Of a stretch of DNA of 64,000 nt, positions 622 through 50,506 are shown one piece after another. Numbering within the stretch: position 1 is the stretch's first letter; each line of letters starts with the position of its first letter. Under the pieces are notes generated by a model, which had not been told where the DNA came from, made no database searches, and saw only the letters and a program-made list of their open reading frames with translations. The DNA is from Escherichia coli. Lineage in GTDB: Bacteria; Pseudomonadota; Gammaproteobacteria; Enterobacterales; Enterobacteriaceae. The position numbers were made by a program, and so were the translations under genes. The stretch lies in assembly GCA_002099625.1 (NCBI GenBank), contig GCA_002099625.1_4857.1, one strand, 5' to 3'.

Positions 622-1419
622 CTAGTTGTTAAAGTGTAGGTTGAGGGTGCCCTGGAAGTTCGTACATTTATCGGTCAGTTGCACTGACACGACTTTCGCG
701 AACGCCGTATTTGCTCCCGGCAAGTCTGCAGGTACGCCGTCGAATACGACAGTGGCACCACGCAGGTTATACGGGGATGGGGTATCTTCAGCTACCCAAA
801 TCTCAGGAACACATTTGTTGAGTTCGATTGCCAACGCCGTGTCATCTACCTCGATACCGACCGCTAAGAGGCTCAGGAAACGAGAGATGTGGCTACAATC
901 GATGTCACGCGAATAGATATACGCCTGACCCAACTGGATGTCCTGGTGATCCGGGTACAGAAGACCGCTCAACTCTGTATTGGTTACTACTTCTGCCAGA
1001 GGTGTAGCAGGTTTCAGCTCGATGACCGCTTGACTTCGCCACTCGTGGGAAGTTTCAACAGCAACGACTGTGTGCGTCTGTCCATCAATGGGGTTATCTT
1101 CGATATCCTCAGGTAAGATAGACAGATTAAAACGCTCGTTAATCGCCGCGAGTAAGTCGTGCGTGGTTTGCACGTCCTCGTCTCCAAAGGCAACATCGCC
1201 TTTAAGGTAGTCCTCTAATGGACGACGATGGTAGTCCACAATCACTTGCGTACCTTCATCACCGCGCATCTTCGAGGTAAGGACTACCTCCGAATCACGA
1301 CCGTCTACTGACACAACCTCCGGCAGTCCGATATCAACATCGTCAAAGGTAAGCGGTGGGCTTATCTTATTCTCTTCGTTGATGAGTTTTAGCAGATTCT
1401 GTTTTGAAGTAAAAGACAT
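622..1419 (-). CDS. hypothetical protein
   Basis: 265-aa ORF; stop TAG overlaps SD of next gene (coupled). Confidence 0.6.
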   Translation of the reverse strand: MSFTSKQNLLKLINEENKISPPLTFDDVDIGLPEVVSVDGRDSEVVLTSKMRGDEGTQVIVDYHRRPLEDYLKGDVAFGDEDVQTTHDLLAAINERFNLSILPEDIEDNPIDGQTHTVVAVETSHEWRSQAVIELKPATPLAEVVTNTELSGLLYPDHQDIQLGQAYIYSRDIDCSHISRFLSLLAVGIEVDDTALAIELNKCVPEIWVAEDTPSPYNLRGATVVFDGVPADLPGANTAFAKVVSVQLTDKCTNFQGTLNLHFNN

Positions 1420-6962: not shown

Positions 6963-7316
6963 TTACTGTTTAGCCCAGTATTCGGCCAACGTTTGGTCAC
7001 CTTTACCGATGCGAGCATGAATGCCCATTTTACGCAACCGGTACAGTTCAAGGGACATGGTGTTTAGTTTGATAAGATTTACGTCCGTTGGACTCTTAAG
7101 GCAATCGTCTAATACATTAACGAATTTATCCAGCGCCTCTTGCGGAACTTTACCTTCTGGGTAGTCGTACAGTGTTATCACTTTAAAGGTGTAACCGTCG
7201 ATATTCGACAACTGTTTTACAGCTTCACTGATATCACGATTTATCATTGGTGTCCTATTGAGACGCATTGGTCTGGCAACACCGACTACTCTACTCATTG
7301 ACCACCCCCAAACCAC
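6963..7316 (-). CDS. hypothetical protein
   Basis: 117-aa ORF. Confidence 0.5.
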   Translation of the reverse strand: MVWGWSMSRVVGVARPMRLNRTPMINRDISEAVKQLSNIDGYTFKVITLYDYPEGKVPQEALDKFVNVLDDCLKSPTDVNLIKLNTMSLELYRLRKMGIHARIGKGDQTLAEYWAKQ

Positions 7317-7623
7317 TTACAGTGGATGCTGCGGGGACATCCAGGTTATTCATCCATAACGACAGCTTGTTCATCTTCGCTGCGGTCTCTGGGCTAGGGT
7401 TATTGCGCAATTCACTTAAAGCCATCGCATACTGGGTTGCCAGTATTTGACTGCCGTAGAAAGCACCACGGCTTACAGGCAACGCTTCGAAGCGTGCATC
7501 GAAATTGTTTGCTTGGTTAAGTTCTTTAACAGTGCTCAGAATGGCTTCCTGCATTCGAAGTTCACCGTCACCTTCAAGGTCAGTTGCCTGACGCAATACC
7601 GCTATGTGATAGACTTTGGACAT
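7291..7623 (-). CDS. hypothetical protein
   Basis: 110-aa ORF; SD TAAGGAG; class B promoter about 60 nt upstream. Confidence 0.5.
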   Translation of the reverse strand: MSKVYHIAVLRQATDLEGDGELRMQEAILSTVKELNQANNFDARFEALPVSRGAFYGSQILATQYAMALSELRNNPSPETAAKMNKLSLWMNNLDVPAASTVSGLGVVNE

Positions 7624-7682
7624 TTTAATTGCTCCTTAATACATGACATAAGTTCTGATTGAAACGTAAATTTCAGAGGTTC

Positions 7683-7706
7683 ACTGAGATAACATCTATC
7701 TGAAAT
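7683..7706 (-). promoter_or_regulatory. class B phage promoter-like motif
   Basis: Minus-strand TTTCAGATAGATGTTATCTCAGTG; related copies at 18184, 26453, 46767 and 47567. Confidence 0.55.
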
Positions 7707-7745
7707 AAAATAAAGCGTACCAGCCACCCCGAAGGATAGCTGGTA
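7704..7745 (-). terminator. intrinsic terminator
   Basis: Stem accagc/gctggt around ccccgaagg, T-run on minus strand; after stop of 7751..10768. Confidence 0.6.
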
Positions 7746-7750
7746 TACAC

Positions 7751-10700
7751 TTAGTTAGTTTCGAGTGGATCGTCTGGAATAGTAAACGTTATATCAAGTG
7801 AAGCTGTTGTGTGGTCGGGGATTGCCAAGTCGTGATAGATATCATGCCCTGCACCATGTTCTTTATAGAGGAGATACAAGCCGATTGCACGCATCGCTTC
7901 CCCGGTATAAAACCCAAAGGCTTGACCGTTATCCGTAGTAGGGTTTGCCCACGGAGACCAGGCACCGTTAATGGCTTTTCCTGGAATGTCTGTGACGGTG
8001 AAGTTGTCACCCATCTCTTTCATCCCCATATCCATAATACGGCTCAACCCTTCCACTGTACAGCCAGCCATTGCTGCATAAGCGCTGCCTGCTATCCAGA
8101 GCGCACACATATGTGCTGTGAAATCGTTCTCTACCCACACCGGTTTATTTGGTGCCGTAGGGAATTCATTCGGCGTGTGGTTGTCAAAGCGGTCTAAGAA
8201 CCCTACGAGCCACTTAGCCCAATTTTCAACGTACACTACTAGCTCAGGTGGAACCTCTTTACCACGCACAACTAATTCGTACCAACAACGCGCAGCGGCG
8301 TTATACGCGCGCGGCTGATAACCTGCCCACGGATGTCCATCTCCCCAATGGAACGTTGTCCACGTATCTGCCGGGCCGTAAGAGTAATTATCCCAACGGT
8401 TCCAAATATACGCCGCACAACCTGGACCTAACTCACCTATCTGCTTTTGGTAGTTGGTTTGTGAATCGTGCATAAACCGAATCTGATTTAAGAGCCAGTC
8501 TTTGTAGCGATCATCGGTGTGTATGGTGTACATAAACGGATACTGATAGCCAGGATACGGCATCCCGTGCCATGCACCTAGCTGATACGTTCCTTCCGAA
8601 TAGATGTTCGAGAACGGTATCGTTCCTGGGCAATACGCGAGCGAGTCAAGACGGTAATCTTTTATCGTACAATCGCCCACTTTACCCGTAAATGCAGAAC
8701 CTCCCCGAATTACAATACGGAACGTTAATGTCCAGCCATCGTCTGCATTAAACAGTGGCGGAACATCGTTTACGCAATACCAGCTAAAGTGCGCATTCTC
8801 CACAGCCGAATCGGGCAGTATGGTTACCTGATCGATAGTTGTATAGTTTGGCGCAGCCGGTTTTGGTTCGACGTCGGTATCGTGGTCAGGTTGATAGCCC
8901 GAGAGTGTTGCGTCTTCAGGGCGAATAATAACCTGTTTCCATTCCCCGTTAGTCGCGGGCAACATCCACCACCAACGCCACTTGTCGGTATCTTCGAAAC
9001 GGAAGTTGAAATCAGCATCAGCACGATAGACAATTGACTGTGGGGGTGCAACTCCGGCATCGGTTAACCAGAAGCCGATAATGAAACCCGCATCGTCGTT
9101 CGGGAATAACGCTTCTACGATTGTGCCTGAACGACCATCGTAAATGTTGTTCTCAAACTTCTCCTGCCACGTACACCCACCGTAGTCCGAACATGCTCGC
9201 GCATCGGCAATGATGTAATCTTCGCCGTTGGCCGGATTGGTCATTCTGGCCAGATGCCCTAAATCGATGTCATGCTGTTCTACTTCCATCGATGTTGATC
9301 CCGGAAGCGTACAGCCGTACCAGTTTACTTCTTCAGTATCCGCTTTGACGGGGTTAATATCCACCATCACTTTACACGCAAGTGCATCACCGTTGTCGCA
9401 AACACCGCCATACGTCACACGTAACTTCGATTGACTGTTTATCCTGAAACGCACGGCTTGCTGTTCCATAAAGTTCTGCACAGCTTTCTCAGAACGGAAC
9501 ACAATATCACCATTTTCATCACGACTGTAAGCGACCTCAACAGTGCTGGGGTATTTATAGTCGTACGAGATACCGTCTGTAAATGGTGTTTCGGCTAGCT
9601 TAGAACGTCGGAAAAACTTGTCCTTCGCATCGATATACGTGTATTCGTGCGCTGTATAGAACACAGAGTCTAGTGCGGCTTTATAGCGCGCTTCACCTGT
9701 GATACGCCAGAGCAGATAGCAGGCATCAATAAACCACACTTCCGCATCTGCCGCGTTACCCATCTGGTTAACAGACCCTTTTAACGGGGTATGAACCGGA
9801 CGGTTGTGCCACGGCTCATTGCGGTCAAACAAATAACCGCCGTGCTCTACAGGTACCTGGGAAGCGTAGTTAATCAAATATACACCGTTAATACTGGTGT
9901 CCTTTAATTGTACGGTTCCTTTCTGGGCATCAGGTAAACCGGATTCGATGACATCGCCGTCTTGAACCTTCTCACCCGTCCACACAACAAACCAGTCAGG
10001 TTCGTACCGCGGACCTTTCGAGGTAGAACCGCCCCACATTGGTGTATATCCGGTTGGGTCGTTTAACATCCTGTTCCAGTCCACCCATGCTTTTACATCG
10101 TAAGGTTTCTCTGGATTGGTGATTAAGTAATCAGGGACTTTAGACCAGTCAATTAACCCGTTTTCCGATTCCTTAATTTTCTGTACGTCGGCATTAACCG
10201 CACCCCAGGTAGGATGGCCACGGTGCGCAGAAAAGAAATTGTTCAGATACTCACCAAAGAATGGTGCGCCTTGGGGTATCTGGCAACGCCCGTTCGTAAA
10301 CGTTACCGGTACACACTTGTAACCACCGTGGGTTGGCTCGGTCGGATGCACTGGATAGTCTGCCAGCACCGGTTCTTTACCGTTAACTAGCCAGTTACAA
10401 ATCCATCGTTGCGGTGAATCGGGAATGGCCTGACCTGCGTAATAGTAGGTAGCGTACGCTTCCCATGCATGAATCGCCGCATCTAACCACATCTGGTTTT
10501 TGGTAGCAATGTACATGTGACAGTAGCCAATAATCAGCAACGATTGACCTTCTGTGGTGGCGTCACCATTAGGTTGATACACTGCCATGGAGTCAGCAAT
10601 GAAATGCCGGTTATTAGATAGCACCCCTTCTGGGTTAATCAGATAATGGTCATTGTGGGCGTCGTTAGTTAAGCCGGTGTTTCGACGAACAAAGTCCTGA

Positions 10701-10768
10701 TGTCCGTAAGCCAGCGACAGTGCGTAGTTCAGCGCATGTCGTTTAGCAGAGATTTTAAATTTGCGCAT
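7751..10768 (-). CDS. large multidomain protein, glycoside-hydrolase-like (alpha/alpha toroid) candidate
   Basis: 1005-aa ORF, W/Y/G-rich with repeated aromatic motifs typical of six-hairpin glycosidases; fold assignment by eye only. Confidence 0.6.
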   Translation of the reverse strand: MRKFKISAKRHALNYALSLAYGHQDFVRRNTGLTNDAHNDHYLINPEGVLSNNRHFIADSMAVYQPNGDATTEGQSLLIIGYCHMYIATKNQMWLDAAIHAWEAYATYYYAGQAIPDSPQRWICNWLVNGKEPVLADYPVHPTEPTHGGYKCVPVTFTNGRCQIPQGAPFFGEYLNNFFSAHRGHPTWGAVNADVQKIKESENGLIDWSKVPDYLITNPEKPYDVKAWVDWNRMLNDPTGYTPMWGGSTSKGPRYEPDWFVVWTGEKVQDGDVIESGLPDAQKGTVQLKDTSINGVYLINYASQVPVEHGGYLFDRNEPWHNRPVHTPLKGSVNQMGNAADAEVWFIDACYLLWRITGEARYKAALDSVFYTAHEYTYIDAKDKFFRRSKLAETPFTDGISYDYKYPSTVEVAYSRDENGDIVFRSEKAVQNFMEQQAVRFRINSQSKLRVTYGGVCDNGDALACKVMVDINPVKADTEEVNWYGCTLPGSTSMEVEQHDIDLGHLARMTNPANGEDYIIADARACSDYGGCTWQEKFENNIYDGRSGTIVEALFPNDDAGFIIGFWLTDAGVAPPQSIVYRADADFNFRFEDTDKWRWWWMLPATNGEWKQVIIRPEDATLSGYQPDHDTDVEPKPAAPNYTTIDQVTILPDSAVENAHFSWYCVNDVPPLFNADDGWTLTFRIVIRGGSAFTGKVGDCTIKDYRLDSLAYCPGTIPFSNIYSEGTYQLGAWHGMPYPGYQYPFMYTIHTDDRYKDWLLNQIRFMHDSQTNYQKQIGELGPGCAAYIWNRWDNYSYGPADTWTTFHWGDGHPWAGYQPRAYNAAARCWYELVVRGKEVPPELVVYVENWAKWLVGFLDRFDNHTPNEFPTAPNKPVWVENDFTAHMCALWIAGSAYAAMAGCTVEGLSRIMDMGMKEMGDNFTVTDIPGKAINGAWSPWANPTTDNGQAFGFYTGEAMRAIGLYLLYKEHGAGHDIYHDLAIPDHTTASLDITFTIPDDPLETN

Positions 10769-10771
10769 GGC

Positions 10772-11245
10772 CTAGTATCCTGTTCCGCAAATGGCCCCTT
10801 TCCAGGTTGTACCGCCATCCGTAGATGACAAAGACAACACATCCTCGGCGTCCAGCTTGTACGATAACGGAGGTTCTGCACCGTTAGGCCATTTAACCGA
10901 AGTCGGCCAGGTGATTTTGTTTGCACCGGTACCCTGACGTAGCGTCAGTAATAATTCATATCGCGTACCCGGAACCGGGTCGGTAATAGGTGTGATAGAA
11001 AGCGCAGTGGTGGGGTCACCTAAACGGATGATGAAGTCGTCCGCAACATTGGGATCTATTTCAACGATACCGTCAGCACCGGATAAGTTTTGGATAGGGT
11101 TTGCGTCTGCCCCACCACCGCCGATTTCACTGAGGGGAAGTTTGTACTCCTTTTCATCAACGCTGATAAGCGCTACTGCGCTCGACTTATCGCCGTTGTA
11201 AGAATCGAGTTCATGCAAACGTTTCTTTTTGACTACAGTTGCCAT
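10772..11245 (-). CDS. hypothetical protein, possible small adhesin or Ig-like structural protein
   Basis: 157-aa ORF, G/T/P-rich; start overlaps stop of upstream gene. Confidence 0.5.
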   Translation of the reverse strand: MATVVKKKRLHELDSYNGDKSSAVALISVDEKEYKLPLSEIGGGGADANPIQNLSGADGIVEIDPNVADDFIIRLGDPTTALSITPITDPVPGTRYELLLTLRQGTGANKITWPTSVKWPNGAEPPLSYKLDAEDVLSLSSTDGGTTWKGAICGTGY

Positions 11246-13194
11246 TATGCATCGTCTCCGTAGGTTAACACTGCATCATCACCGATGCATAAAACAGTTT
11301 CTTCATCCAGACTTGCCACAGCTTCTTTTTCATTAAACGCCGTGAATGTAAAGGTAGCCGTCCATGCCGGCGAATCGTCACTCATCGGTGCAATCAACGG
11401 CTCGTTTGTTGGTGTAATAACCCCTGTCGAGATGTCTTCACGTGACAAGTTTAAACCGCACAACTGGTTTACAACTGTCGCTAAATCAGCATAGGTGTCG
11501 CCGGGAGCTACAGTAACTAGTATCGGTCCTTGCGGGTCGATAATTTTATTAGCGACTAGACGGTCGTAATAGACGGTAACCTTCTTGCCGTTAGGTTTAC
11601 GTGCTTTTGCAATGTACGCTTGCGTGGTACGGGCACTTTCAACACCTAAGTCGATAGGCCCCACTCCGCTTATTACAATCTCGTCAGGCGATAATGACAA
11701 TCCGTTATCGTGATTAATTAACGCCACAACGAGGCCCTTGGAGTCTAATCTAAGGTCAGGTGTAAAACGATTAGGGGGACTGTATTTTGCATTCAGTGCA
11801 GGTTTATCAACTAACCAAAAGCCGCTTGGTACGCAGGCCAAAATCACCCAGGCGGTATTTGTTGTCGACGGCCAATTAGGTAAAGTGTCGTAAGTTGGGT
11901 CATCGCACGAATCGCGATAACCGTGTTCACCCAGGAGAACATCGATATTATTAATTAGTTCAATTGCCCTAGTATCGTTCCCTAATTGTCTTTCAAATAA
12001 GGCAACACCGGCAGTTCCTTCAACCCAAACGCCGTCGACCGCAGTCGGATAACCCAATTCAACCTTATAAGGTGTGTAACCGCTGCATTCGGACGTTACT
12101 GCTCGAAACTTTTCCATGTAGCTGTGACACTGCGAAGCCAGCTCCGGTTTGAACTTAGCGATAAACAATCCACCCCAGCTTGACTGGTCTAAAGCGGCAG
12201 CGTCGTCATCGACATCGGCTCTAACGCCTTGACGCAATCGACCCTCTTCTTCTATCCAAAACTTGTCTAAAATTAGATTGCCTAACTCTATCGCCTTCGC
12301 GGCGTAGCTATCAAATCCAACCCTTCCCAATATCTCGAATAAAAACCACAAATCAACACAATGTTCCAAGGCCGAGAACGGTGCTACATAATTTTCATCG
12401 AACGTTTGCGTACCATCGGGGTTTGTAATAAAGCGGCCTTTACCCCCGAGATATAAGCCGTATCTCCTATCGTTTACATCGCTAACACGGAATCCTTCAA
12501 CCCAACTGAGCGAAAGAGTGAGCTTACTCCTAACTTGACCAACTAAGGTGCCGTTTGGATATTTCTCTAGGTAAAAAGCAAGGGCGTATAATACCCATGC
12601 CACATTGCCCATCCGATAATAGTTACGTGGAGACTTGGCAGACAAACGATTTACATAAAACTTAATACCACCGTCTGTGTCCACTAAAGCACAAAGCCCT
12701 TTAACATATTTCTCAACGGCTCCGTGATCTATAGCCATTAGTGCTAAAGCTGCCACCGCCTGATCGTACGTGTAACATCGATCTTTCATTACCTTGATAA
12801 CATCAGGTTCGGCGTCGCTGGGCATTAAGTAACTGCGTATACATAGAGGAAATTCCAGGGTTGTAATCCACTCTCCAGTTGATATATTGATTAGTCTAAA
12901 CTGTTTAGCACCGGCCCACGTACGTTTAAAAGAAAACGCCCCTGAGGCATCAAGAGGGGCTTCACCTAGCAAATACTCCCCGGTGGTGTAAGCATACATT
13001 ACCACTTTGTGGTTTGTGGGGTTGGTAACGTTGCTTTTTCCCGTCACGACCCCGATATAATCGTAGTCTACATTCTGATCTACGGACAGACTTACACTCG
13101 GGTCGTAGACCTCAGGAAGATCCAAGGTTAGCATTGTCTCTGTAGTATATTCGACCAACTCAGCAAAGTTGCGGATTATAGGTTTCGTCGTCAC
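11245..13194 (-). CDS. glycosidase-like (alpha/alpha)6 toroid protein candidate
   Basis: Start reassigned to GTG at 13194 (SD GGAGG 5 nt upstream); the ORF track start at 13290 would read through the terminator at 13223..13250. Contains YDQAVAALAL-like motifs. Confidence 0.55.
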   Translation of the reverse strand: MTTKPIIRNFAELVEYTTETMLTLDLPEVYDPSVSLSVDQNVDYDYIGVVTGKSNVTNPTNHKVVMYAYTTGEYLLGEAPLDASGAFSFKRTWAGAKQFRLINISTGEWITTLEFPLCIRSYLMPSDAEPDVIKVMKDRCYTYDQAVAALALMAIDHGAVEKYVKGLCALVDTDGGIKFYVNRLSAKSPRNYYRMGNVAWVLYALAFYLEKYPNGTLVGQVRSKLTLSLSWVEGFRVSDVNDRRYGLYLGGKGRFITNPDGTQTFDENYVAPFSALEHCVDLWFLFEILGRVGFDSYAAKAIELGNLILDKFWIEEEGRLRQGVRADVDDDAAALDQSSWGGLFIAKFKPELASQCHSYMEKFRAVTSECSGYTPYKVELGYPTAVDGVWVEGTAGVALFERQLGNDTRAIELINNIDVLLGEHGYRDSCDDPTYDTLPNWPSTTNTAWVILACVPSGFWLVDKPALNAKYSPPNRFTPDLRLDSKGLVVALINHDNGLSLSPDEIVISGVGPIDLGVESARTTQAYIAKARKPNGKKVTVYYDRLVANKIIDPQGPILVTVAPGDTYADLATVVNQLCGLNLSREDISTGVITPTNEPLIAPMSDDSPAWTATFTFTAFNEKEAVASLDEETVLCIGDDAVLTYGDDA

Positions 13195-13207
13195 AATTTC
13201 CTCCAGA

Positions 13208-13252
13208 AACAAAAAAAAATAAGCTACCACACATATGATCGTGTGGTAGCCT
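13208..13252 (-). terminator. intrinsic terminator
   Basis: Stem gctaccacac/gtgtggtagc, T-run on minus strand; after stop of 13265..13660. Confidence 0.7.
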
Positions 13253-13264
13253 ACTCGTACGCTG

Positions 13265-13660
13265 TTAGTGCAGTGTAGCACTGTGCACAACAGTTAACCC
13301 GCGACGTTTGATCTCATCCGCGATGGATTGCAACAGCTTATCGTAACCCACCTTTACAAATTCAGGTAAGCCACGGTCAACCATCTCCATCTCGGTGATT
13401 TCTTCACGGAAAACTTGACAACAGCCTTCTAAATAACGTTTAGCTTCTGTCACGTCATCGACATACCGCGCATAACTCAGGGCGATCGCGTAACCTTCTG
13501 CAATAAACGCATACTTCATGAAGACTTCTGGGTCGAGTTCTTCAACTGCCACGTCTAGACGTGAAGCGGTCTGACGTACAGAGTTACGTAATGATTCAGA
13601 AAACAGTGTAGTCGTAACCATATCCTGATTAGGAACGGTTTTAGGCATAATCAATTTCAC
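13265..13660 (-). CDS. hypothetical protein
   Basis: 131-aa ORF. Confidence 0.5.
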   Translation of the reverse strand: MKLIMPKTVPNQDMVTTTLFSESLRNSVRQTASRLDVAVEELDPEVFMKYAFIAEGYAIALSYARYVDDVTEAKRYLEGCCQVFREEITEMEMVDRGLPEFVKVGYDKLLQSIADEIKRRGLTVVHSATLH

Positions 13661-13671
13661 GAGGACTCTCC

Positions 13672-14055
13672 TTACGATAACTCGCCCATGTAAATTACTT
13701 CATAACCGAACCACTCACCGATTTCAATAAGGTAAGAAACTAGCAAGTGGCGATGACAGAATTTCCCCGGTGGGCAATAGCACATTAGTACGACCTCGCC
13801 CCGGCGGAGAATCTCTATCAGCTTATCAGTGTCTTCATCAAACAACCGACTAAGTTTCTGCAGGTAGCGTTTGGTATACGCAGCTTCTGCGTCGGGGCCT
13901 TTGTCAGACTTCTTGTAGTCCATCAGAAAGTCCCAGTCGGGTGCCAAATATTTCAGCCCCGACTTAACCGTTATATCCAGCTTTGGCAAATTCCGTTTTT
14001 CAGCTATCCGCCACTTCGCCAGTTGGAGCGTCCACAGCTTTACTTGCTTTGGCAT
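13672..14055 (-). CDS. DUF488-like protein
   Basis: Motif VVLMCYCPPGKFCHRHLL (C..C....CHR) and LAPDW region resemble the DUF488/YeaO family; start taken at ATG 14055 (MPKQ); overlaps 3' end of upstream gene. Confidence 0.45.
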   Translation of the reverse strand: MPKQVKLWTLQLAKWRIAEKRNLPKLDITVKSGLKYLAPDWDFLMDYKKSDKGPDAEAAYTKRYLQKLSRLFDEDTDKLIEILRRGEVVLMCYCPPGKFCHRHLLVSYLIEIGEWFGYEVIYMGELS

Positions 14056-15007
14056 TATTCGCTCTCTCTTTTTCTTTCTCCTGAAGCGCTTTAAAATGCG
14101 GTGCATATTCGCACCACTCTTCTGCTGTAAATGACGTGATAAACAGTCTTTCGGTATCTTCAGTTACCGTAAAGGTTGTGTGATTTCTTTTCGGGTCCTT
14201 AAAGTTAGCAAAAGTCGGTACGTCCAAACCCATAGCAGAAATAGCACCACCAAGAGCAGAGCACCATACCCGTCTGTAAGCATCGTTGATTTTAATCTCC
14301 CATCCCACAGACGGTGTAATACCAAGACTACGATAATTCTGCGACTTTGCCGACGGATGGGCATAAACGATGAGCATGTTATTCTCACGGTCTATCGCGA
14401 ATTCGTAGTTGTTGTAGTTACTGACCTGCACCAATCTACGAATGTCTTCCGGCAACTCCTGCCACATTTCCAGTTTCTCTTTATCCCACGCAGGTGTTAG
14501 AAGCGGTGGAACGCGGCCGGCATGATCTTGGAAATACATCAGTTCGCTATAAAGGTTCTTTAAGCGAGCGTACTCGTCTAATGTCCAATCTCCCAGCTCT
14601 AGACTATTCTCCAACGCATCTAACTTATTCCAGCCAACAACTGCATAGGCGTGGTGCTGTTTGCGTGTAATGTCGCACATCAGTTTAGCGAGGCCGTTAA
14701 CAACATTGCCTTGCTGAACCAGAGGCGACCAGCCGTTAGCGTAGCCGGCGCTAACGACAGGCGGAAAGTTCTCTTCCCCGAGCACCGCCCATGTAACACG
14801 ATCGGTTTGTGCGTGGTATCTGTCCATTAACCGTTCAACAATGGCCACACTACAAAGAATTTCCATGAAGTTCGCGTTACCTCCATTCCACATGGAGAAA
14901 TATGCAGGACGGACATGTCGTGCTTCATTGGCCGGTGCTTTGCACAACAGCTGATACATTATCCAGGTGGAATCCAACCCTGCTGAAAACGAAACGAGCT
15001 TCGTCAT
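14000..15007 (-). CDS. PP-loop ATP pyrophosphatase superfamily protein
   Basis: N-terminal SFSAGLDST matches the PP-loop SGGxDS motif (QueC, PAPS reductase, asparagine synthase class); 335 aa. Confidence 0.5.
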   Translation of the reverse strand: MTKLVSFSAGLDSTWIMYQLLCKAPANEARHVRPAYFSMWNGGNANFMEILCSVAIVERLMDRYHAQTDRVTWAVLGEENFPPVVSAGYANGWSPLVQQGNVVNGLAKLMCDITRKQHHAYAVVGWNKLDALENSLELGDWTLDEYARLKNLYSELMYFQDHAGRVPPLLTPAWDKEKLEMWQELPEDIRRLVQVSNYNNYEFAIDRENNMLIVYAHPSAKSQNYRSLGITPSVGWEIKINDAYRRVWCSALGGAISAMGLDVPTFANFKDPKRNHTTFTVTEDTERLFITSFTAEEWCEYAPHFKALQEKEKERANNAKASKAVDAPTGEVADS

Positions 15008-15015
15008 CCTTTACC

Positions 15016-15348
15016 TCACTTTTGTTTCTGTTTTTCTTCACGCATCAACTTAGCGTTCAGGTCGACCATGTAACCCGGTTTTTCCATCACCTGCACTTCT
15101 TCCCAGTTGCTTCCCACCGCCATTTTGAGGGTTCCTTGACGTACCGCGATTTCTTTTGCAGTGTCACGGCAGACCTCTAACGCTTCGTCCAAATCGTTAA
15201 AAGTTGTCTTCTGTGGTCCGTTAAAGGTTTTAGCGCATTCCAGGAATACACGTTCGTAAACATCCTGGTCGAGTAAGAGTGGTTTGTCCGCAGCGTGGGC
15301 AACCATAGGCGCAACGAGTGCGCCTAACAGAACTAAAACTTTCTTCAT
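15016..15348 (-). CDS. secreted small protein with Sec signal peptide
   Basis: Start at ATG 15348 (MKKVLVLLGALVAPMVAHA-AD, AXA cleavage site); ATGA overlap with upstream stop. Confidence 0.5.
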   Translation of the reverse strand: MKKVLVLLGALVAPMVAHAADKPLLLDQDVYERVFLECAKTFNGPQKTTFNDLDEALEVCRDTAKEIAVRQGTLKMAVGSNWEEVQVMEKPGYMVDLNAKLMREEKQKQK

Positions 15349-21345: not shown

Positions 21346-22164
21346 TTATAAGGTGCCGATTAGCTCCGTCACCGCTTTACGCTTATTCGCATCCGCAGAC
21401 ATATATCGACCTACTTGAACTTCGCGCCAAGTAAAGCCGTAATAAATATCGCGTGTGAGTAACGTATCTGCGTTTGACAGAACGACCTTATTGCCATCGG
21501 CAGCTTGTTGTTTTAAAAGTTTCGCTAACTCGCGGTGGTCAGCTTGTGAAAATTCTTTGCTGTGATACTGCGCGTGTTTAGCCGTATCCGAAAGTGGGAT
21601 GTAGGGCGGGTCGGCGTATATCACAGCGTTAGATGGGCACTTATTTAGGATGTCGCGGAAGTCCGCGCAGAGCAGCTCGACGTTGGTTTCCGAACAACGT
21701 TTTGCCCACGCCAGAATTTCCTCTTCAGGGAAATAGACACCGTTCGGGTGTTGACCATAGGGCACGTTAAACCCACCCGACTGATTGTATCTGCACAAAC
21801 CATTGTAACCATGACGTGTAAGATACAGGAACATCGCGGCGCGCTGGAGATTAGGTTTCCCCGTGGTTGCTTCGCTGTTAAATCCCTCGCGTCGTTCCAT
21901 GTAGAGACCGCGGTCCGTCCCATTTGCAAAGAGCGCCTTTGCTTCCAGAATCAGCGCTTCCGGACGATCGCGCGCCATGGTCAGTAACTCGATTAAGTCC
22001 GGGTTCGTGTCGCCGAGAATATAGTTCGGGTATTTAGTGTTTAAAAACACTGACCCTGCGCCCACAAAAGGTTCAACGAAATACTCAGCATCCGGAAACA
22101 CCTGTAGCAGCTCGGGCAGTACACGACTCTTACCACCCATCCATTTTAAAATTGGTTTTATCAC
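21346..22164 (-). CDS. dam: DNA adenine methyltransferase (Dam-like, GATC-type)
   Basis: Motifs FVGAGSVFLNT (SAM binding), LYLTRHGYNGLCRYN and DPPY catalytic motif; 272 aa. Confidence 0.85.
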   Translation of the reverse strand: MIKPILKWMGGKSRVLPELLQVFPDAEYFVEPFVGAGSVFLNTKYPNYILGDTNPDLIELLTMARDRPEALILEAKALFANGTDRGLYMERREGFNSEATTGKPNLQRAAMFLYLTRHGYNGLCRYNQSGGFNVPYGQHPNGVYFPEEEILAWAKRCSETNVELLCADFRDILNKCPSNAVIYADPPYIPLSDTAKHAQYHSKEFSQADHRELAKLLKQQAADGNKVVLSNADTLLTRDIYYGFTWREVQVGRYMSADANKRKAVTELIGTL

Positions 22165-22167
22165 CCG

Positions 22168-23169
22168 TTAACATCCTCTCATGCCAGATTGAAACATATC
22201 ACTGATAGTCAGCCTGGTTGTAGTCTCCACCGGAATGCTAGGTTCTTCTTTCAGCACTCGATCGGCGCGGTTCCCATTCACCCGTTTCCAGCTAATAAGT
22301 TCAGGATCGCGTTTCAACGTTAGTGTACGCAGTACCTGCTTGCAACGTAAGATGTTACCGTACAGGTGATTTGCTGGATTATTATCAGCAGCTGTTTCAA
22401 TATAGACTTGGTCGGAATGACGTTGTGCGAAATCGAATAGCGCGCCCATTAGCCGGCGGCCAATGCCACGTTTACGGTGCGTGGGTGCAACGGTTAAACC
22501 AGAAAGTTCAACGACGCCTGGTGTAACCAAGCGCATCTGGGCAATACCGACGATATCATGGCCGTCTCGCCAAATTGCAGTCTCCACATTAGCGTGCTGA
22601 ATTCTTGCTATTACTGTTTCTGCTAACGGACCAATGTGTGTATAGTAGCCACGCATATCGTATTCTAGCTCTTCGCAAATTGCACCGCTAATCAAATTCA
22701 GGATAACGTCTTTATCTTCCTTGGTAAGTTCTGCGTATGCATCACCAGAAATAATCTTGATTTCTGATGCGGTGATTACTTTGTCAAACAGTTTAGAATG
22801 ACATGCCCAAACGATATCTGAAAGAACAAACCCTTTTTCGACCAGTTTTTGTTCAACATCGTCAGTAGGTGCTGGGCACGACATATATTCGAATCCGGTA
22901 TGGTCGAGCACAAGGGCCAAACCAACTTTATCGAATGCCCCAGGTACAAACTCCTCAAAATAGTGACAGGTTAGCGTAGGGTCACCGTGTCGATAGGTGG
23001 CCACTAAATAACCCTCCCAGGTTTCTTTATTCTTCACCACGTAAACAGAATAAGTCTCGTCCTTTAGAAACTCTTTTAGGCGGCGTGCTCGTACAGTATC
23101 GCTACCGACGTTATTTCGGAACTCGGCAGTGCGGATGCTGGTGCGAAACAATTTAGCCACAGTTTTCAT
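22168..23169 (-). CDS. GNAT-family acetyltransferase domain protein
   Basis: C-terminal motif A HRKRGIGRRLMGALFDF; start set at ATG 23169 (MKTVAKLF) so the ORF does not run through the terminator at 23221..23255. Confidence 0.5.
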   Translation of the reverse strand: MKTVAKLFRTSIRTAEFRNNVGSDTVRARRLKEFLKDETYSVYVVKNKETWEGYLVATYRHGDPTLTCHYFEEFVPGAFDKVGLALVLDHTGFEYMSCPAPTDDVEQKLVEKGFVLSDIVWACHSKLFDKVITASEIKIISGDAYAELTKEDKDVILNLISGAICEELEYDMRGYYTHIGPLAETVIARIQHANVETAIWRDGHDIVGIAQMRLVTPGVVELSGLTVAPTHRKRGIGRRLMGALFDFAQRHSDQVYIETAADNNPANHLYGNILRCKQVLRTLTLKRDPELISWKRVNGNRADRVLKEEPSIPVETTTRLTISDMFQSGMRGC

Positions 23170-23220
23170 TGTAATGCCCTCAAAAGGTATTGCTGTCACA
23201 ACATGAGGATAATGCGTAAA

Positions 23221-23255
23221 AAGACAAAAAATTAAGGGGTCCGAAGACCCCTTAA
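23221..23255 (-). terminator. intrinsic terminator
   Basis: Stem aaggggtc/gacccctt with cgaa loop, T-run on minus strand. Confidence 0.7.
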
Positions 23256-23258
23256 TGA

Positions 23259-23915
23259 TTACAGTTCCGGTTTGGAGACAAGCGTCGTCCAAGTTTCGGA
23301 ATGTTTGACACTGACGTGTGCTAGGCGATTCACCATGAACGCAAATTTGTCCATATGTTTCTGCACTTCGTTATCAGTCAGATTGCCAGCGATAACTTTA
23401 CCGTCTTTGGTCAGCACGATATAGCCGTGGTTGTTGTCTACCGTAGTGAACGCCACATCAATCGTAACCGGGTAAAGTTTCACCAGCGTCGGCAGAATGT
23501 GGCCAACACGATCGGCCATACCCGCAAGCTGGCCACAAAGGTCGGCTTTATCCTGCATGAACAAACGCAACATCGCTACTGCAAACACCGGATAGATGTT
23601 TTCGATTTGCGTGTCGTAACGAGACAGGCCGATAACTTCATCACCGCGGGTTAGCACCATGTTGTTCAGATGCGCTCCTTTATAGATGGTAAAGCGTACG
23701 TCGCTACCAAGGTTAACCGAAACGATTTCCTGACCAAGGTCAATCGGAAATTCACGTTCGATGTGAATCGTTTTCAGACGCTCACTGATCGGTACAATCA
23801 CATCCGGCTTCGGAATGCTAGATGTACGCGTGGATTCAGTAGTGCGCGTTTTTGTGGATTTAACCGCGCTGCTTGCCATTGAATCTTTTGCTACAGTTTT
23901 AGGGGCCTTCGCCAT
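23259..23915 (-). CDS. hypothetical protein
   Basis: 218-aa ORF with S/T-rich N-terminus. Confidence 0.5.
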   Translation of the reverse strand: MAKAPKTVAKDSMASSAVKSTKTRTTESTRTSSIPKPDVIVPISERLKTIHIEREFPIDLGQEIVSVNLGSDVRFTIYKGAHLNNMVLTRGDEVIGLSRYDTQIENIYPVFAVAMLRLFMQDKADLCGQLAGMADRVGHILPTLVKLYPVTIDVAFTTVDNNHGYIVLTKDGKVIAGNLTDNEVQKHMDKFAFMVNRLAHVSVKHSETWTTLVSKPEL

Positions 23916-47671: not shown

Positions 47672-49969
47672 TTAGCCGCCAGCGCCTTCACCGCCAGTAC
47701 CTGGCTGGGTACCGCCGCCAACATCACCAGCATTACCACCGTCAGTACCGCCGGTACCGTTGGAAGTAGTAGTGACGTTGAACGCCAGTTTCTCTTCCAC
47801 GAACTTGGTGATACCTTTAATCCAGATCAGACCAGTGATCGGGCAGTGGCAGATGTGCGCGTTACGAGGCTGTACTGCCAGCTCTTTGCTGGTAGCGCCG
47901 TTACGCTGGATGTTGATGTTGGTTACCATGATCGGAGACCAGAAGTGGTTACCCCAGTTCAGAACACAGTAAGAACCATCATCAGCGGTTGGAACTTTCA
48001 GAACCCACTGCAGGCGGCGAGTCCAGCTGCCGTCAGCTTCGTTCTTCACACGCCAGCGGTCATCGTTGGTGGTGATAACTTCGTACTCGTAGCGATCGCC
48101 CAGCAGACGCTGGTCACCCTGAACCAGCAGCAGCATTGCAGCAGTCGGTTCGTCAGTTGCGATAACAACTTTCGGCAGTGCGTTCGGGTCCGCAGTCAGC
48201 AGGCGCAGAGCCGGCATGAAGCGAGAGTCCTGGATAGCACGAGTTACCTGGTCACCGATACGCTGTACCAGACCCTGACGGGCGTTGATGAGCGCATCTT
48301 TGGTATCCAGAGACTGGATCACTTTGTCCACTTCGTAGTCGCTTTCGCTGTACCACGGAGCAACCCAGTGACGGCCCAGGCCGCGGATAGCAGGTTTGTC
48401 CCACGGAGTGATCATGGACGCAGCTGCGTTCTTAACCGCTTCGGTGTAAGACAGAGTCTGAGTGATAGCCAGCATTTCGTTACGGATGTTAACCGCAGAA
48501 ACGAGGTCGTCCAGACGTTCGGTGTCGTCGTATTCAACGCCAACCGGAGATTTGGTCATGATCGGAGAACCGTACTGCAGTTTGTAGTTCTCTTGTTCCC
48601 AAATCGGGTCGAGCAGAAGGCCCTGGGTTCTCCGGTTCTCGTTGGTACGAGTACCGTCGAAGCGCCAGCCCAGCAGCTCCAGTTTCAGGTTGTCGATGAT
48701 CACTTTACCGGTGCCGCTTTCGATATCAACAGCAGTACCAGTTGCGTCGTACAGACCTTCGATTTCCAGAGACGGTGCAGTCACGTCAACACGACCAGAG
48801 AACTGACCGTTGGTGAACAGAGACATGCTGATGTTCATGGAATAACGAATGGTGTAATCGTTCTGTGCCAGAGCGGCCAGTGCCGGGATTTCAGCACCTT
48901 TCCAGTCCAGAGACTTGGCGTTCAGGGAGAACACGGTGCGACGGAACTGCAGGACCAGCTCACGGCCATCACCTTCAGGAGGACGCTGGAAAGTAGCGAA
49001 CTGCATGTCGCGTACGTTCAGTTTGATCAGCGCACCATCTTTCGCTTCTTCGGTCGGCTTACGCACAGACAGCAGCAGGCTACCCAGCGCCGCACCCGGT
49101 GCGATTTCGTCGGTTTCATCGTAACCTTCCTGCACGATACCCGGATGGGCAGACAGCTGGAACAGGTTCAGACGACGTTCAGAGAAGCTCAGGTAGTTGG
49201 TCGGATACGCCGGCACACGACCCAGCTGAACGTTTTCGTTTTCGATGATGTCTTCGGATACGAAGAACTTCGCGTTCTCGCCGGTTTCCATCACGTAAGG
49301 AACGATACGGATAGCATCGTCCTGCAGGACTTTGTGGTTAGACAGCGCGTTATGCAGCGGCTGACGGTTGTCTTCAACCACGTCTTTGGTCAGCAGGGCG
49401 TTCAGGATACCACGAGTTACAGTAGTAACTTTGGTACGAACGGTGATGCCGACGTCGTTGGTGTCCACAGTGATGGTCGGGAACAGGGTTTCTGCAAACT
49501 TGGATTGAGTTTCCAGAGCACGCACGTTCAGCGTCCAGGTCAGACCCAGGTTTTTGTCCAGGTCTTTGTTGGTGTAGTATTCGGTTGCGACCAGCGGAGT
49601 TTTACCGTAGTCAGCAGCCAGAGATGCTGCACCGGAAATAGCGATCGGCATGTAGCTGGCATATTCCGGCTTCGCGCTCTCAGCAGCAACACGGGTCATG
49701 AAGTCATCTTCGTGACCGGCAGCAGCCAGAATCATCGCAGAAGCAACCTGAGCAGCGTGGCTCATGGTTTTGCCAGGGTTTACAGCTTCGTAGTGCTGCT
49801 GAGCAGTGTCACGCAGGTTGGTGAAGCCGGCAGCATTTTTACGTACAGATTCGCCAACGGCTACGGTTTGCCATACGTCATTAGCGGAAGAGCCTGCCTT
49901 GGCAGCAGCGACCAGAGCATTGCCCTGCTGAACCAGCTGGTCCAGACTAGCGATACGGGTATCTTTCAT
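47672..49969 (-). CDS. abundant large structural protein, major capsid or sheath candidate
   Basis: 765-aa ORF with strongly biased codon usage, strong downstream terminator, Gly-rich C-terminal tail; the antisense 715-aa plus ORF has R/V/F/Q-rich junk-like composition. Confidence 0.55.
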   Translation of the reverse strand: MKDTRIASLDQLVQQGNALVAAAKAGSSANDVWQTVAVGESVRKNAAGFTNLRDTAQQHYEAVNPGKTMSHAAQVASAMILAAAGHEDDFMTRVAAESAKPEYASYMPIAISGAASLAADYGKTPLVATEYYTNKDLDKNLGLTWTLNVRALETQSKFAETLFPTITVDTNDVGITVRTKVTTVTRGILNALLTKDVVEDNRQPLHNALSNHKVLQDDAIRIVPYVMETGENAKFFVSEDIIENENVQLGRVPAYPTNYLSFSERRLNLFQLSAHPGIVQEGYDETDEIAPGAALGSLLLSVRKPTEEAKDGALIKLNVRDMQFATFQRPPEGDGRELVLQFRRTVFSLNAKSLDWKGAEIPALAALAQNDYTIRYSMNISMSLFTNGQFSGRVDVTAPSLEIEGLYDATGTAVDIESGTGKVIIDNLKLELLGWRFDGTRTNENRRTQGLLLDPIWEQENYKLQYGSPIMTKSPVGVEYDDTERLDDLVSAVNIRNEMLAITQTLSYTEAVKNAAASMITPWDKPAIRGLGRHWVAPWYSESDYEVDKVIQSLDTKDALINARQGLVQRIGDQVTRAIQDSRFMPALRLLTADPNALPKVVIATDEPTAAMLLLVQGDQRLLGDRYEYEVITTNDDRWRVKNEADGSWTRRLQWVLKVPTADDGSYCVLNWGNHFWSPIMVTNINIQRNGATSKELAVQPRNAHICHCPITGLIWIKGITKFVEEKLAFNVTTTSNGTGGTDGGNAGDVGGGTQPGTGGEGAGG

Positions 49970-49981
49970 TTCAAGTTTACC

Positions 49982-50506
49982 TTATTTAGATAAATGACAT
50001 GCGTACAACTGCGTCAGCACTTCGTGCGCAGCAAACTGCGTCGACGTACTGAACGTATCATCCACGACACGAGTCTTGGGACGCATATATTTAAAAAGTT
50101 CTGCGCAGAACATCTTTTTCGCAGCGTGGTCTTCACTTAAAGAAAAACCCGGTCCGGATTTAGCTTCTGCAAAAGACGCCACAACAACATCGCCACGTTG
50201 TGAGAACACCCAACGTAAACGACCGTCGAATGATTCCCCATATAAATCAGCAAGGGTTTCATTCGTACCTTTCTCAACCAGGTTTAAGACCTGGTCATAA
50301 TAAAGAGTCGGAAGTGCAGGTGGTGCCATAATCGATTTATAAATCGAAATAGGGTCACTCACTGGCAGTATGATGGAACTAAAGCCCGACGAGCAGTCAT
50401 ATAACCAGTTAAAGAAGCTTGCTTGGAGTTCCTCCAACTTTTTAACGCCAGCCCCTTTATCTATGTTAGATTGAACTTCCCACGGTGGACTAAAACGAAT
50501 TTGCAT
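49982..50506 (-). CDS. hypothetical protein
   Basis: Start at ATG 50506 (MQIRFSPPW), 15 nt from the divergent plus-strand start. Confidence 0.5.
   Translation of the reverse strand: MQIRFSPPWEVQSNIDKGAGVKKLEELQASFFNWLYDCSSGFSSIILPVSDPISIYKSIMAPPALPTLYYDQVLNLVEKGTNETLADLYGESFDGRLRWVFSQRGDVVVASFAEAKSGPGFSLSEDHAAKKMFCAELFKYMRPKTRVVDDTFSTSTQFAAHEVLTQLYACHLSK

Follow-up and report, generated by a model that had tools for sequence, protein, structure and literature searches.

Three genes of an SPN3US-like jumbo phage encode two proteins with predicted (alpha/alpha)6 barrels

The P3-P2-P1 operon and its counterparts in SPN3US

We analysed a 64,000-nucleotide stretch of DNA (the window) from an Escherichia coli assembly (GCA_002099625.1, contig GCA_002099625.1_4857.1) and concentrated on three open reading frames (ORFs) on its minus strand, P1 (7751..10768, 1005 aa, ATG start), P2 (10772..11245, 157 aa, ATG start) and P3 (11245..13194, 649 aa, GTG start). 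An original prediction had seen here two large proteins flanking a small one and had likened the large ones to six-hairpin glycosidases; all three ORFs lie where it placed them. Judged by its DNA similarity, the window is that of a Seoulvirus, an SPN3US-like jumbo phage, with bases 7751-11733 showing 96-97% DNA identity to Salmonella phage SPN3US and 33 other records, mostly Seoulvirus. Among PHROG families, P1 matched phrog_2871 (E = 0, 1506 bits), P2 matched phrog_9017 (1.6e-59) and P3 matched phrog_13714 (4e-178) together with the Pfam domain DUF7941.

The stop codon of P3 and the start codon of P2 overlap by 1 nt, and P2 and P1 are spaced by 3 nt. On the 5' side the unit is bounded by a strong intrinsic-terminator-like hairpin (13217..13256, minus strand, 17 bp stem plus T-run) that ends the upstream gene, and on the 3' side by a second terminator-like hairpin (7718..7745, minus strand, 12 bp stem with 6 GC pairs) that lies 6 nt past the P1 stop. 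Given hairpins on both flanks and junctions that overlap or are only 3 nt apart, P3, P2 and P1 form a single terminator-bracketed operon. The P3 frame stays open as far as a TTG at 13290, which we rejected as a start codon since a gene beginning there would cross the terminator and overlap its upstream neighbour. A GGAGG ribosome-binding site (13200..13204, minus strand) stands 5 nt before the GTG at 13194, and gene callers gave the identical 649-aa product on six public contigs, including ones of 244 kb and 242 kb, so we consider this GTG to be the real start.

In SPN3US, P3 corresponds to gp122 (177 aa), P2 to gp123 (156 aa) and P1 to gp124 (1005 aa), encoded by SPN3US_0122 to 0124 (RefSeq ACQ60_gp144 to gp142) at the same locus, in the same order and on the same strand. 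SPN3US and the present phage also have the upstream terminator and the ribosome-binding site in common, and P1 shares 98-99% protein identity with its Seoulvirus orthologues in SPLA3 and SPFM21. The three-gene units differ in gp122, which is 177 aa long in SPN3US versus 649 aa here, with a 1472-nt cassette instead of its first 17 codons.

Published mass spectrometry of SPN3US places the first two proteins in the tail (PMC10052503 Table S2): gp124 gave 530 peptide-spectrum matches (PSM) in wild-type particles versus 20 in tailless ones and gp123 gave 55 versus 0, and both were classed as 'Tail'. By analogy with these near-identical orthologues, the association of P1 and P2 with the virion tail is supported, which for P1 bears out the suggestion in the original prediction that the two large proteins may be virion-associated. 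Its remarks on composition were accurate. Tryptophan and tyrosine make up 9.8% of P1 and 8.3% of the P3 barrel module, compared with 5.7% in the 24 other ORFs of the window, and glycine and threonine make up 19.7% of P2, compared with 12.9% in those ORFs.

P3 and its prophage fibre module

The cassette (11728..13199, minus strand, 1472 nt, GC 45.7%) has no DNA similarity to SPN3US by blastn and stands in place of 56 SPN3US nucleotides, namely 5 nt of leader and the first 17 gp122 codons. The recombination breakpoint comes directly after the ribosome-binding site, which was kept from the gp122 gene of SPN3US, and the gp122 frame is picked up again at about the fourth gp122 residue. P3 therefore consists of an imported barrel module (aa 1-472) followed by a gp122-like part (aa ~476-649; residues 476-649 at 11248..11769, minus strand) that matches the N-terminal half of DUF7941 (PF25613; 59.1 bits, above the gathering cut-off of 27, but over no more than positions 4-161 of the 276 in the profile) and has a predicted local distance difference test score (pLDDT) of 30-69. 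Sequence comparison thus identifies P3 as an imported fibre-tip module fused to the small gp122 protein, and this fusion, overlooked by the original prediction, is the most distinctive fact of the locus.

None of the 34 records in the phage collection that match this locus (SPN3US and the 33 others) has the cassette. Only short gp122 homologues were present in phage 1252 and in four contigs of ~150-225 kb that are more distant; those of the four contigs are 187-201 aa long, and the search of these four for other N-terminal cassettes on gp122 homologues found none. As far as these genomes indicate, the cassette occurs in only some Seoulvirus genomes, being present or absent among near-identical phages. 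It also coincides with a mosaic boundary: window positions 7001-11727, on the P1/P2 side, align with SPN3US at 96.5% identity and positions 13200-15168, on the other side, at 99.5%. This step in identity suggests that recombination with a different Seoulvirus-like donor brought in the cassette.

The imported part resembles the tips of prophage fibres. P3 residues 7-470, comprising a helix, a beta-sandwich and the barrel, are 58-60% identical to the C-terminal module of prophage tail fibres, and more than 70 fibre clusters match at this level over 71% of P3. These fibres come from E. coli, Salmonella, Citrobacter and Yersinia, and their N-terminal parts belong to PF08400, PF12571, PF18668 or PF03406. 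By whole-module homology we assigned P3 residues 1-472 to the fibre distal module of PHROG 13714, 7032 and 4128. In enterobacterial prophage side tail fibres (PF08400, ~608 aa, such as the phiSTEC1575-Stx2k tail protein) the module is C-terminal and follows an anchor, whereas in P3 it is N-terminal and the DUF7941 half-domain follows it.

The structural model of P3 is confident for residues 1-475 (pLDDT mostly above 90) and unreliable for the DUF7941 part (pLDDT below 55). It predicts an upstream helix (aa 10-24) before a beta-sandwich domain (aa 36-114; 12853..13089, minus strand), which in turn precedes an (alpha/alpha)6 barrel (aa 130-455; 11830..12807, minus strand; pLDDT above 90). Foldseek matches to P3 included a Klebsiella oxytoca rhamnosidase, AGE-type isomerases and members of glycoside hydrolase (GH) families GH63, GH76 and GH105. 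The barrel came closest in fold to GH15-like enzymes of clan GH-L and to MmpH (dextran dextrinase 9ju0, MmpH 7qsj, and 5z3a), although identity to them is just 8-13% and epimerases and GH76 score close behind. Searches of the PDB with the barrel sequence and with sequence profiles, including a profile of its superfamily, gave no relevant match and no sequence link to GH15 or MmpH. Nor was there a match in Pfam or NCBIfam, and stand-alone members of the superfamily are likewise without Pfam domains.

An exhaustive phmmer search gathered 448 clusters (at 50% identity) into this barrel superfamily, which by these comparisons is unannotated in current domain databases. Across 35 members with 23-58% identity, six residues never vary: Y143, E277, H278, W313, D336 and E392. 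Two members of the superfamily are fused to other tail parts: P0358 (1050 aa) joins a P3-type barrel to the C-terminal beta-helix of T4 gp5, the central spike, and P0359 (1709 aa) joins one to a podovirus nozzle protein. The P3-type module therefore sits at very different tail positions.

The same fusion of barrel and DUF7941 was found in one other jumbo-phage contig. Its protein, P0001, is 59% identical to P3 overall, with the barrel, judged by eye, clearly better conserved than the gp122-like part. The gene lies at an equivalent site (locus L006, 2046-10555 of a 59.8-kb Logan SRR5831594 contig), next to a stand-alone DUF7941 gene, a gene for a 1532-aa fibre (Phage_fiber_2, Gp34_trimer, Peptidase_S74) and a Gp38-like gene (Gp38_N), and this position amid fibre genes supports the site as a receptor-binding-protein locus. 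A 206-aa protein there has only its N-terminal ~45 residues in common with P2, and no P1 homologue was found near P0001 in L006. Short DUF7941 proteins seem to come before each fibre set.

The window also contains a full-length DUF7941 protein (622-1419, minus strand, 265 aa, E = 4e-68), which is presumably the first of the array of head proteins named 'paralog family B' in SPN3US; this match shows that DUF7941 in Pfam corresponds to that family. An earlier SPN3US paper proposed gp122 as a member of paralog family B. Unlike the head paralogs gp138-154, gp122 is missing from tailless heads and present at a low level in tailed virions.

P1, P2 and their relatives

The model of P1 (pLDDT 90.3, predicted template modelling score 0.87) shows an (alpha/alpha)6 barrel interrupted by two beta-rich insertions. 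The predicted first barrel helix pair (aa 60-115; 10424..10591, minus strand, as are all P1 features) contains an invariant T-T-E73-G-Q75-S motif and is followed by the first insertion (aa 120-330; 9779..10411). The second helix pair (aa 335-380; 9629..9766) carries N-A-A-D-A-E-V-W-F-I-D-A with invariant D341, E343 and D348. After it come the second insertion, made of beta-sandwich domains, part of which matches phrog_23426 (aa 400-705; 8654..9571), and the remaining barrel helices (aa 740-975; 7844..8551), with invariant residues that include Y738, Q742, D768, Q770, W789, R791 and R820. In an alignment that extends to phi92 gp141, 4MG, a 370-kb phage, a Vibrio phage and one that is rV5-like, E73, Q75, D341, E343, D348 and D768 are among the residues that were invariant down to 29% identity.

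The nearest folds to P1 are of the GH8/GH126 endoglucanase type (CelA 1cem, the BcsZ-type enzyme of Pseudomonas putida 4q2b, and CPF_2247 3ren), from which P1 differs in that its barrel is split by insertions of ~210 and ~300 residues; GH105, GH76 and GH88 score nearly as high. GH8 membership of P1 is not established by sequence. P1 had no match in Pfam, PF01270 included, at E<=1, and in the PDB phmmer gave nothing significant and the profile search came back empty. In hhalign, P1 reached a probability of ~1%, whether compared with E. coli BcsZ by itself or with 16 BcsZ orthologues, although the GH8 profile was shallow, since the BcsZ search gave only close orthologues (>=60% identity). The sole match in that comparison was six residues long and paired TTEGQS of P1 with TSEGQS of BcsZ, a motif that carries the GH8 catalytic acid. 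The A-A-D-A-E of P1 resembles the GH8 signature A-[ST]-D-[AG]-D by eye only and departs from the PROSITE pattern. A pairwise global alignment of P1 with GH8 gave z ~0 against shuffled controls and is not a real test, for with a zero end-gap penalty it was degenerate and paired nearly no residues. A shared origin of the P1 and P3 barrels was rejected as well, with hhalign of the two alignments giving no match.

Homologues of P1 were found in 540 phage records, among Vequintavirinae, Stephanstirmvirinae, Erwinia Kolesnikvirus, ZCSE2-like, G17-like and Vibrio phages, with full-length identities of 26-60% across phages of Escherichia, Salmonella, Erwinia, Vibrio and other hosts. Identity is 43% over the full length to phi92 gp141 and 29-59% to other members of PHROG 2871. 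For P2, a small 'tail fiber protein', it is 34% to phi92 gp140 and 31% to 4MG_049, and a 207-aa gene upstream of P0197 aligns locally with P2 at 36% over 83 residues (E = 2e-16); searches of the PDB by sequence and by profile found no match for the fold of P2. The small gene directly upstream of a P1-like gene recurs in phi92 (gp140-gp141), in its rV5-like, 4MG and PVP-SE1 counterparts (PHROG 2871 and 9017) and in a small Salmonella myophage. Homology and gene order thus identify the P2-P1 pair as a module common to phi92, rV5-like, Felix-O1-like (Kolesnikvirus), ZCSE2-like, G17-like and Vibrio myophages.

The setting of the pair varies. In phi92 it lies in the baseplate and fibre gene block, beside gp142 and the endosialidase gp143, whereas here it is part of an isolated operon amid small genes of unknown function, with a DUF7941 gene ahead of it. 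In the small Salmonella myophage (locus L004, 7070-15031 of contig AADECS010000022.1) the P2-like and P1-like genes stand between a tail-terminator gene and two Big_2 (Ig-like) proteins, just ahead of the sheath gene and, unlike in phi92 and 4MG, outside the baseplate block.

Elsewhere in the window, an ORF at 13672-14106 (minus strand) overlaps by ~100 nt the upstream ORF at 14000-15007 (minus strand), which encodes 335 aa of unknown function (phrog_8825); at the former position, both SPN3US and the near-identical contigs have a called 127-aa DUF488-family protein that overlaps in a like manner. A gene for a D12-class N6-adenine DNA methyltransferase (21346-22164, minus strand, E = 1e-53) adjoins one for a 374-aa protein with a C-terminal GNAT acetyltransferase domain (22168-23292, minus strand). 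With 54.6% GC in 48001-50000, the major head protein gene (47672-49969, minus strand, phrog_3231) is the one GC-rich block in the window, and the 715-aa ORF opposite it (47846-49993, plus strand) is most likely a by-product of composition.

Possible function of the two barrels

Modelling predicts, with high confidence, an (alpha/alpha)6 toroid barrel in each of the large proteins; structure prediction, which the original prediction had named as a check for a non-glycosidase fold, returned the toroid for each, and fold search agreed, so the likeness to six-hairpin glycosidases stands. For both barrels, nearly all of the closest solved structures are glycoside hydrolases, polysaccharide lyases or epimerases and isomerases of carbohydrates. 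The invariant residues of P1 and P3, read from secondary-structure strings of the models, appear to lie at the N-terminal ends of barrel helices, which is where toroid glycosidases place their active sites.

With moderate confidence, we interpret the locus as an operon of peripheral tail (baseplate or fibre) proteins in which both barrels bind glycans and probably hydrolyse them. P1 would be a conserved tail protein with a GH8/GH126-like barrel core and two beta-rich insertions, and P2 its small fibre or adaptor partner. P3 would be a small tail-associated gp122 with an added N-terminal beta-sandwich and barrel, drawn from the pool of enterobacterial prophage tail-fibre distal modules. The glycan would be a polysaccharide of the cell surface, and the acidic residues proposed to act on it would lie at the mouth of each barrel, the candidates being E73, D341, E343 and D348 in P1 and E277, D336 and E392 in P3. 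Removal of glycan would open the way for the baseplate to the outer membrane once flagella, the receptor reported for SPN3US, had mediated the first contact. The substrate of P1 would be a glycan conserved among hosts, and P3 would be a strain-variable addition that could shift host range. We infer the catalysis, the substrates, the presence of P3 in the virion and the effect on host range from these likenesses.

P1 belongs to a known and widespread family that is already suspected of glycosidase activity, and the new element is P3. A 2017 review, citing the 2012 phi92 study, lists phi92 gp141 and gp142 as 'glycosidase' and gp141 as a putative glycosidase of the multivalent adsorption apparatus of phi92. 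The BASEL study noted conserved glycan-hydrolase genes in these fibre loci and proposed conserved glycan targets such as the enterobacterial common antigen (ECA). The remark in the original prediction that toroid enzymes would be unusual in phages is only partly apt. Toroids make up ~1% of phage depolymerase candidates (11 of 984 depolymerase-fold hits, 1.1%, in INPHARED, and <1% in Klebsiella prophages), yet such depolymerases had already been recorded, and the P1 homologue gp141 of phi92 is listed as a glycosidase. A literature search on 'six-hairpin' phage tail proteins returned nothing relevant.

The role proposed here is the same as that of P22-type tailspikes, which are virion-borne and act on surface polysaccharide, but those are trimers of right-handed beta-helices. 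Depolymerases of the tailspike class have an N-terminal virion anchor followed by the enzymatic domain, whereas P3 has the opposite order and P1 has no recognisable anchor. Moreover, allelic variability in that class tracks the host glycan, while P1 is conserved across genera and the P3 cassette is either present or absent. Because P1 is conserved over its full length across host genera in 540 phage records, it is unlikely to set host range, contrary to the original prediction; its conservation argues instead for a conserved substrate or a role as a structural hub.

Several findings weigh against our interpretation. Neither barrel had significant similarity to a characterised glycoside hydrolase or lyase, or to a carbohydrate family in Pfam or NCBIfam, in searches of Pfam, NCBIfam and the PDB, so the claim that these are polysaccharide-degrading enzymes found no support in sequence. 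The barrel models are predictions, and the GH8 link of P1 consists of its fold and the six-residue motif. Terpene cyclases, epimerases and isomerases are also among the structural neighbours. A 2026 cryo-electron microscopy paper on phi92 did not locate gp141. As for P3, its enzyme-like part is N-terminal and its conserved part C-terminal, the reverse of the usual receptor-binding proteins, and its DUF7941 part is akin to a family of head proteins, which leaves its location uncertain. SPN3US gp122, moreover, was labelled 'Non-virion' by the authors of the mass spectrometry study on account of its low counts.

The strongest competing view, which we rate as a real but minor possibility, is that the barrels are non-catalytic, with P1 serving as a structural hub or an arm of the fibre network and both barrels being at most lectin-like carbohydrate-binding or scaffold domains. 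The lack of a sequence link to active GH families fits this view, as does the conservation of P1 at 26-60% identity across many host genera, which is unusual for a receptor-degrading enzyme. The large beta insertions could be docking surfaces, and the phi92 cryo-electron microscopy paper assigns no protein to fibre II, in its entirety, or to the arm of fibre I. However, a structural role needs no acidic and aromatic residues held invariant to 23-29% identity at the N-termini of barrel helices. It is very improbable that the barrels are instead non-glycosidase toroid enzymes with a metabolic role, such as sugar epimerases, isomerases or terpenoid cyclase-like proteins, an idea to which the fold matches to cellobiose and N-acylglucosamine 2-epimerases, to mannose and sulfoquinovose isomerases and to squalene-hopene cyclase-like proteins lend some weight.

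Two alternatives concern P3 in particular. It may be absent from the virion and act as a late soluble enzyme or an assembly factor, with a gp122 part that is no tail anchor. In SPN3US, gp122 gave just 22 PSM in wild-type particles and was undetected in the earlier analysis. Nonetheless, these matches were reproducible in tailed virions (7, 7 and 8) while tailless heads gave none, the gene shares its transcript with those of two tail proteins, and the fusion was kept in a second phage within a fibre locus; we thus regard this alternative as rather unlikely. Less probable still is that the P3-type barrel is a virion-associated hydrolase of the cell wall (peptidoglycan or another envelope polymer) that aids penetration. 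Superfamily members on a T4 gp5-like spike (P0358) and a podovirus nozzle (P0359) occupy typical positions of penetration enzymes, but most close relatives are distal on side fibres (PF08400, PF12571, PF18668 and PF03406), where they reach surface glycans, and the structural neighbours of P3 are enzymes of alpha-glucosides and alpha-mannosides rather than lysozymes or transglycosylases.

Seoulvirus (SPN3US-like) phages are under development as biocontrol agents against Salmonella, and few of the proteins that form their tails or recognise the host have been assigned. Our analysis names a tail operon, offers candidate catalytic residues for both barrels, ties SPN3US gp124 to gp141 of the phi92 'Swiss army knife' adsorption apparatus and draws attention to a large barrel superfamily, carried by phages, that domain databases at present leave undescribed. 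Were the barrels inactive, this would be a useful annotation of ordinary biological interest. The natural cassette insertion separates near-identical phages and provides a ready-made pair with which to relate an enzyme module to host range. A bolder proposal, which we put forward only tentatively and consider doubtful as a whole, is that the P3 barrel represents a new glycoside hydrolase family mounted interchangeably on side fibres, spikes and nozzles, and that DUF7941 is a general virion-docking domain. If so, the fusion of barrel and DUF7941 would be a novel route by which a giant, flagellotropic phage gains an enzymatic appendage, and DUF7941, the builder of ~20 head paralogs, would serve for docking to the virion in general, with P3 carrying a half-copy of it in reverse order.

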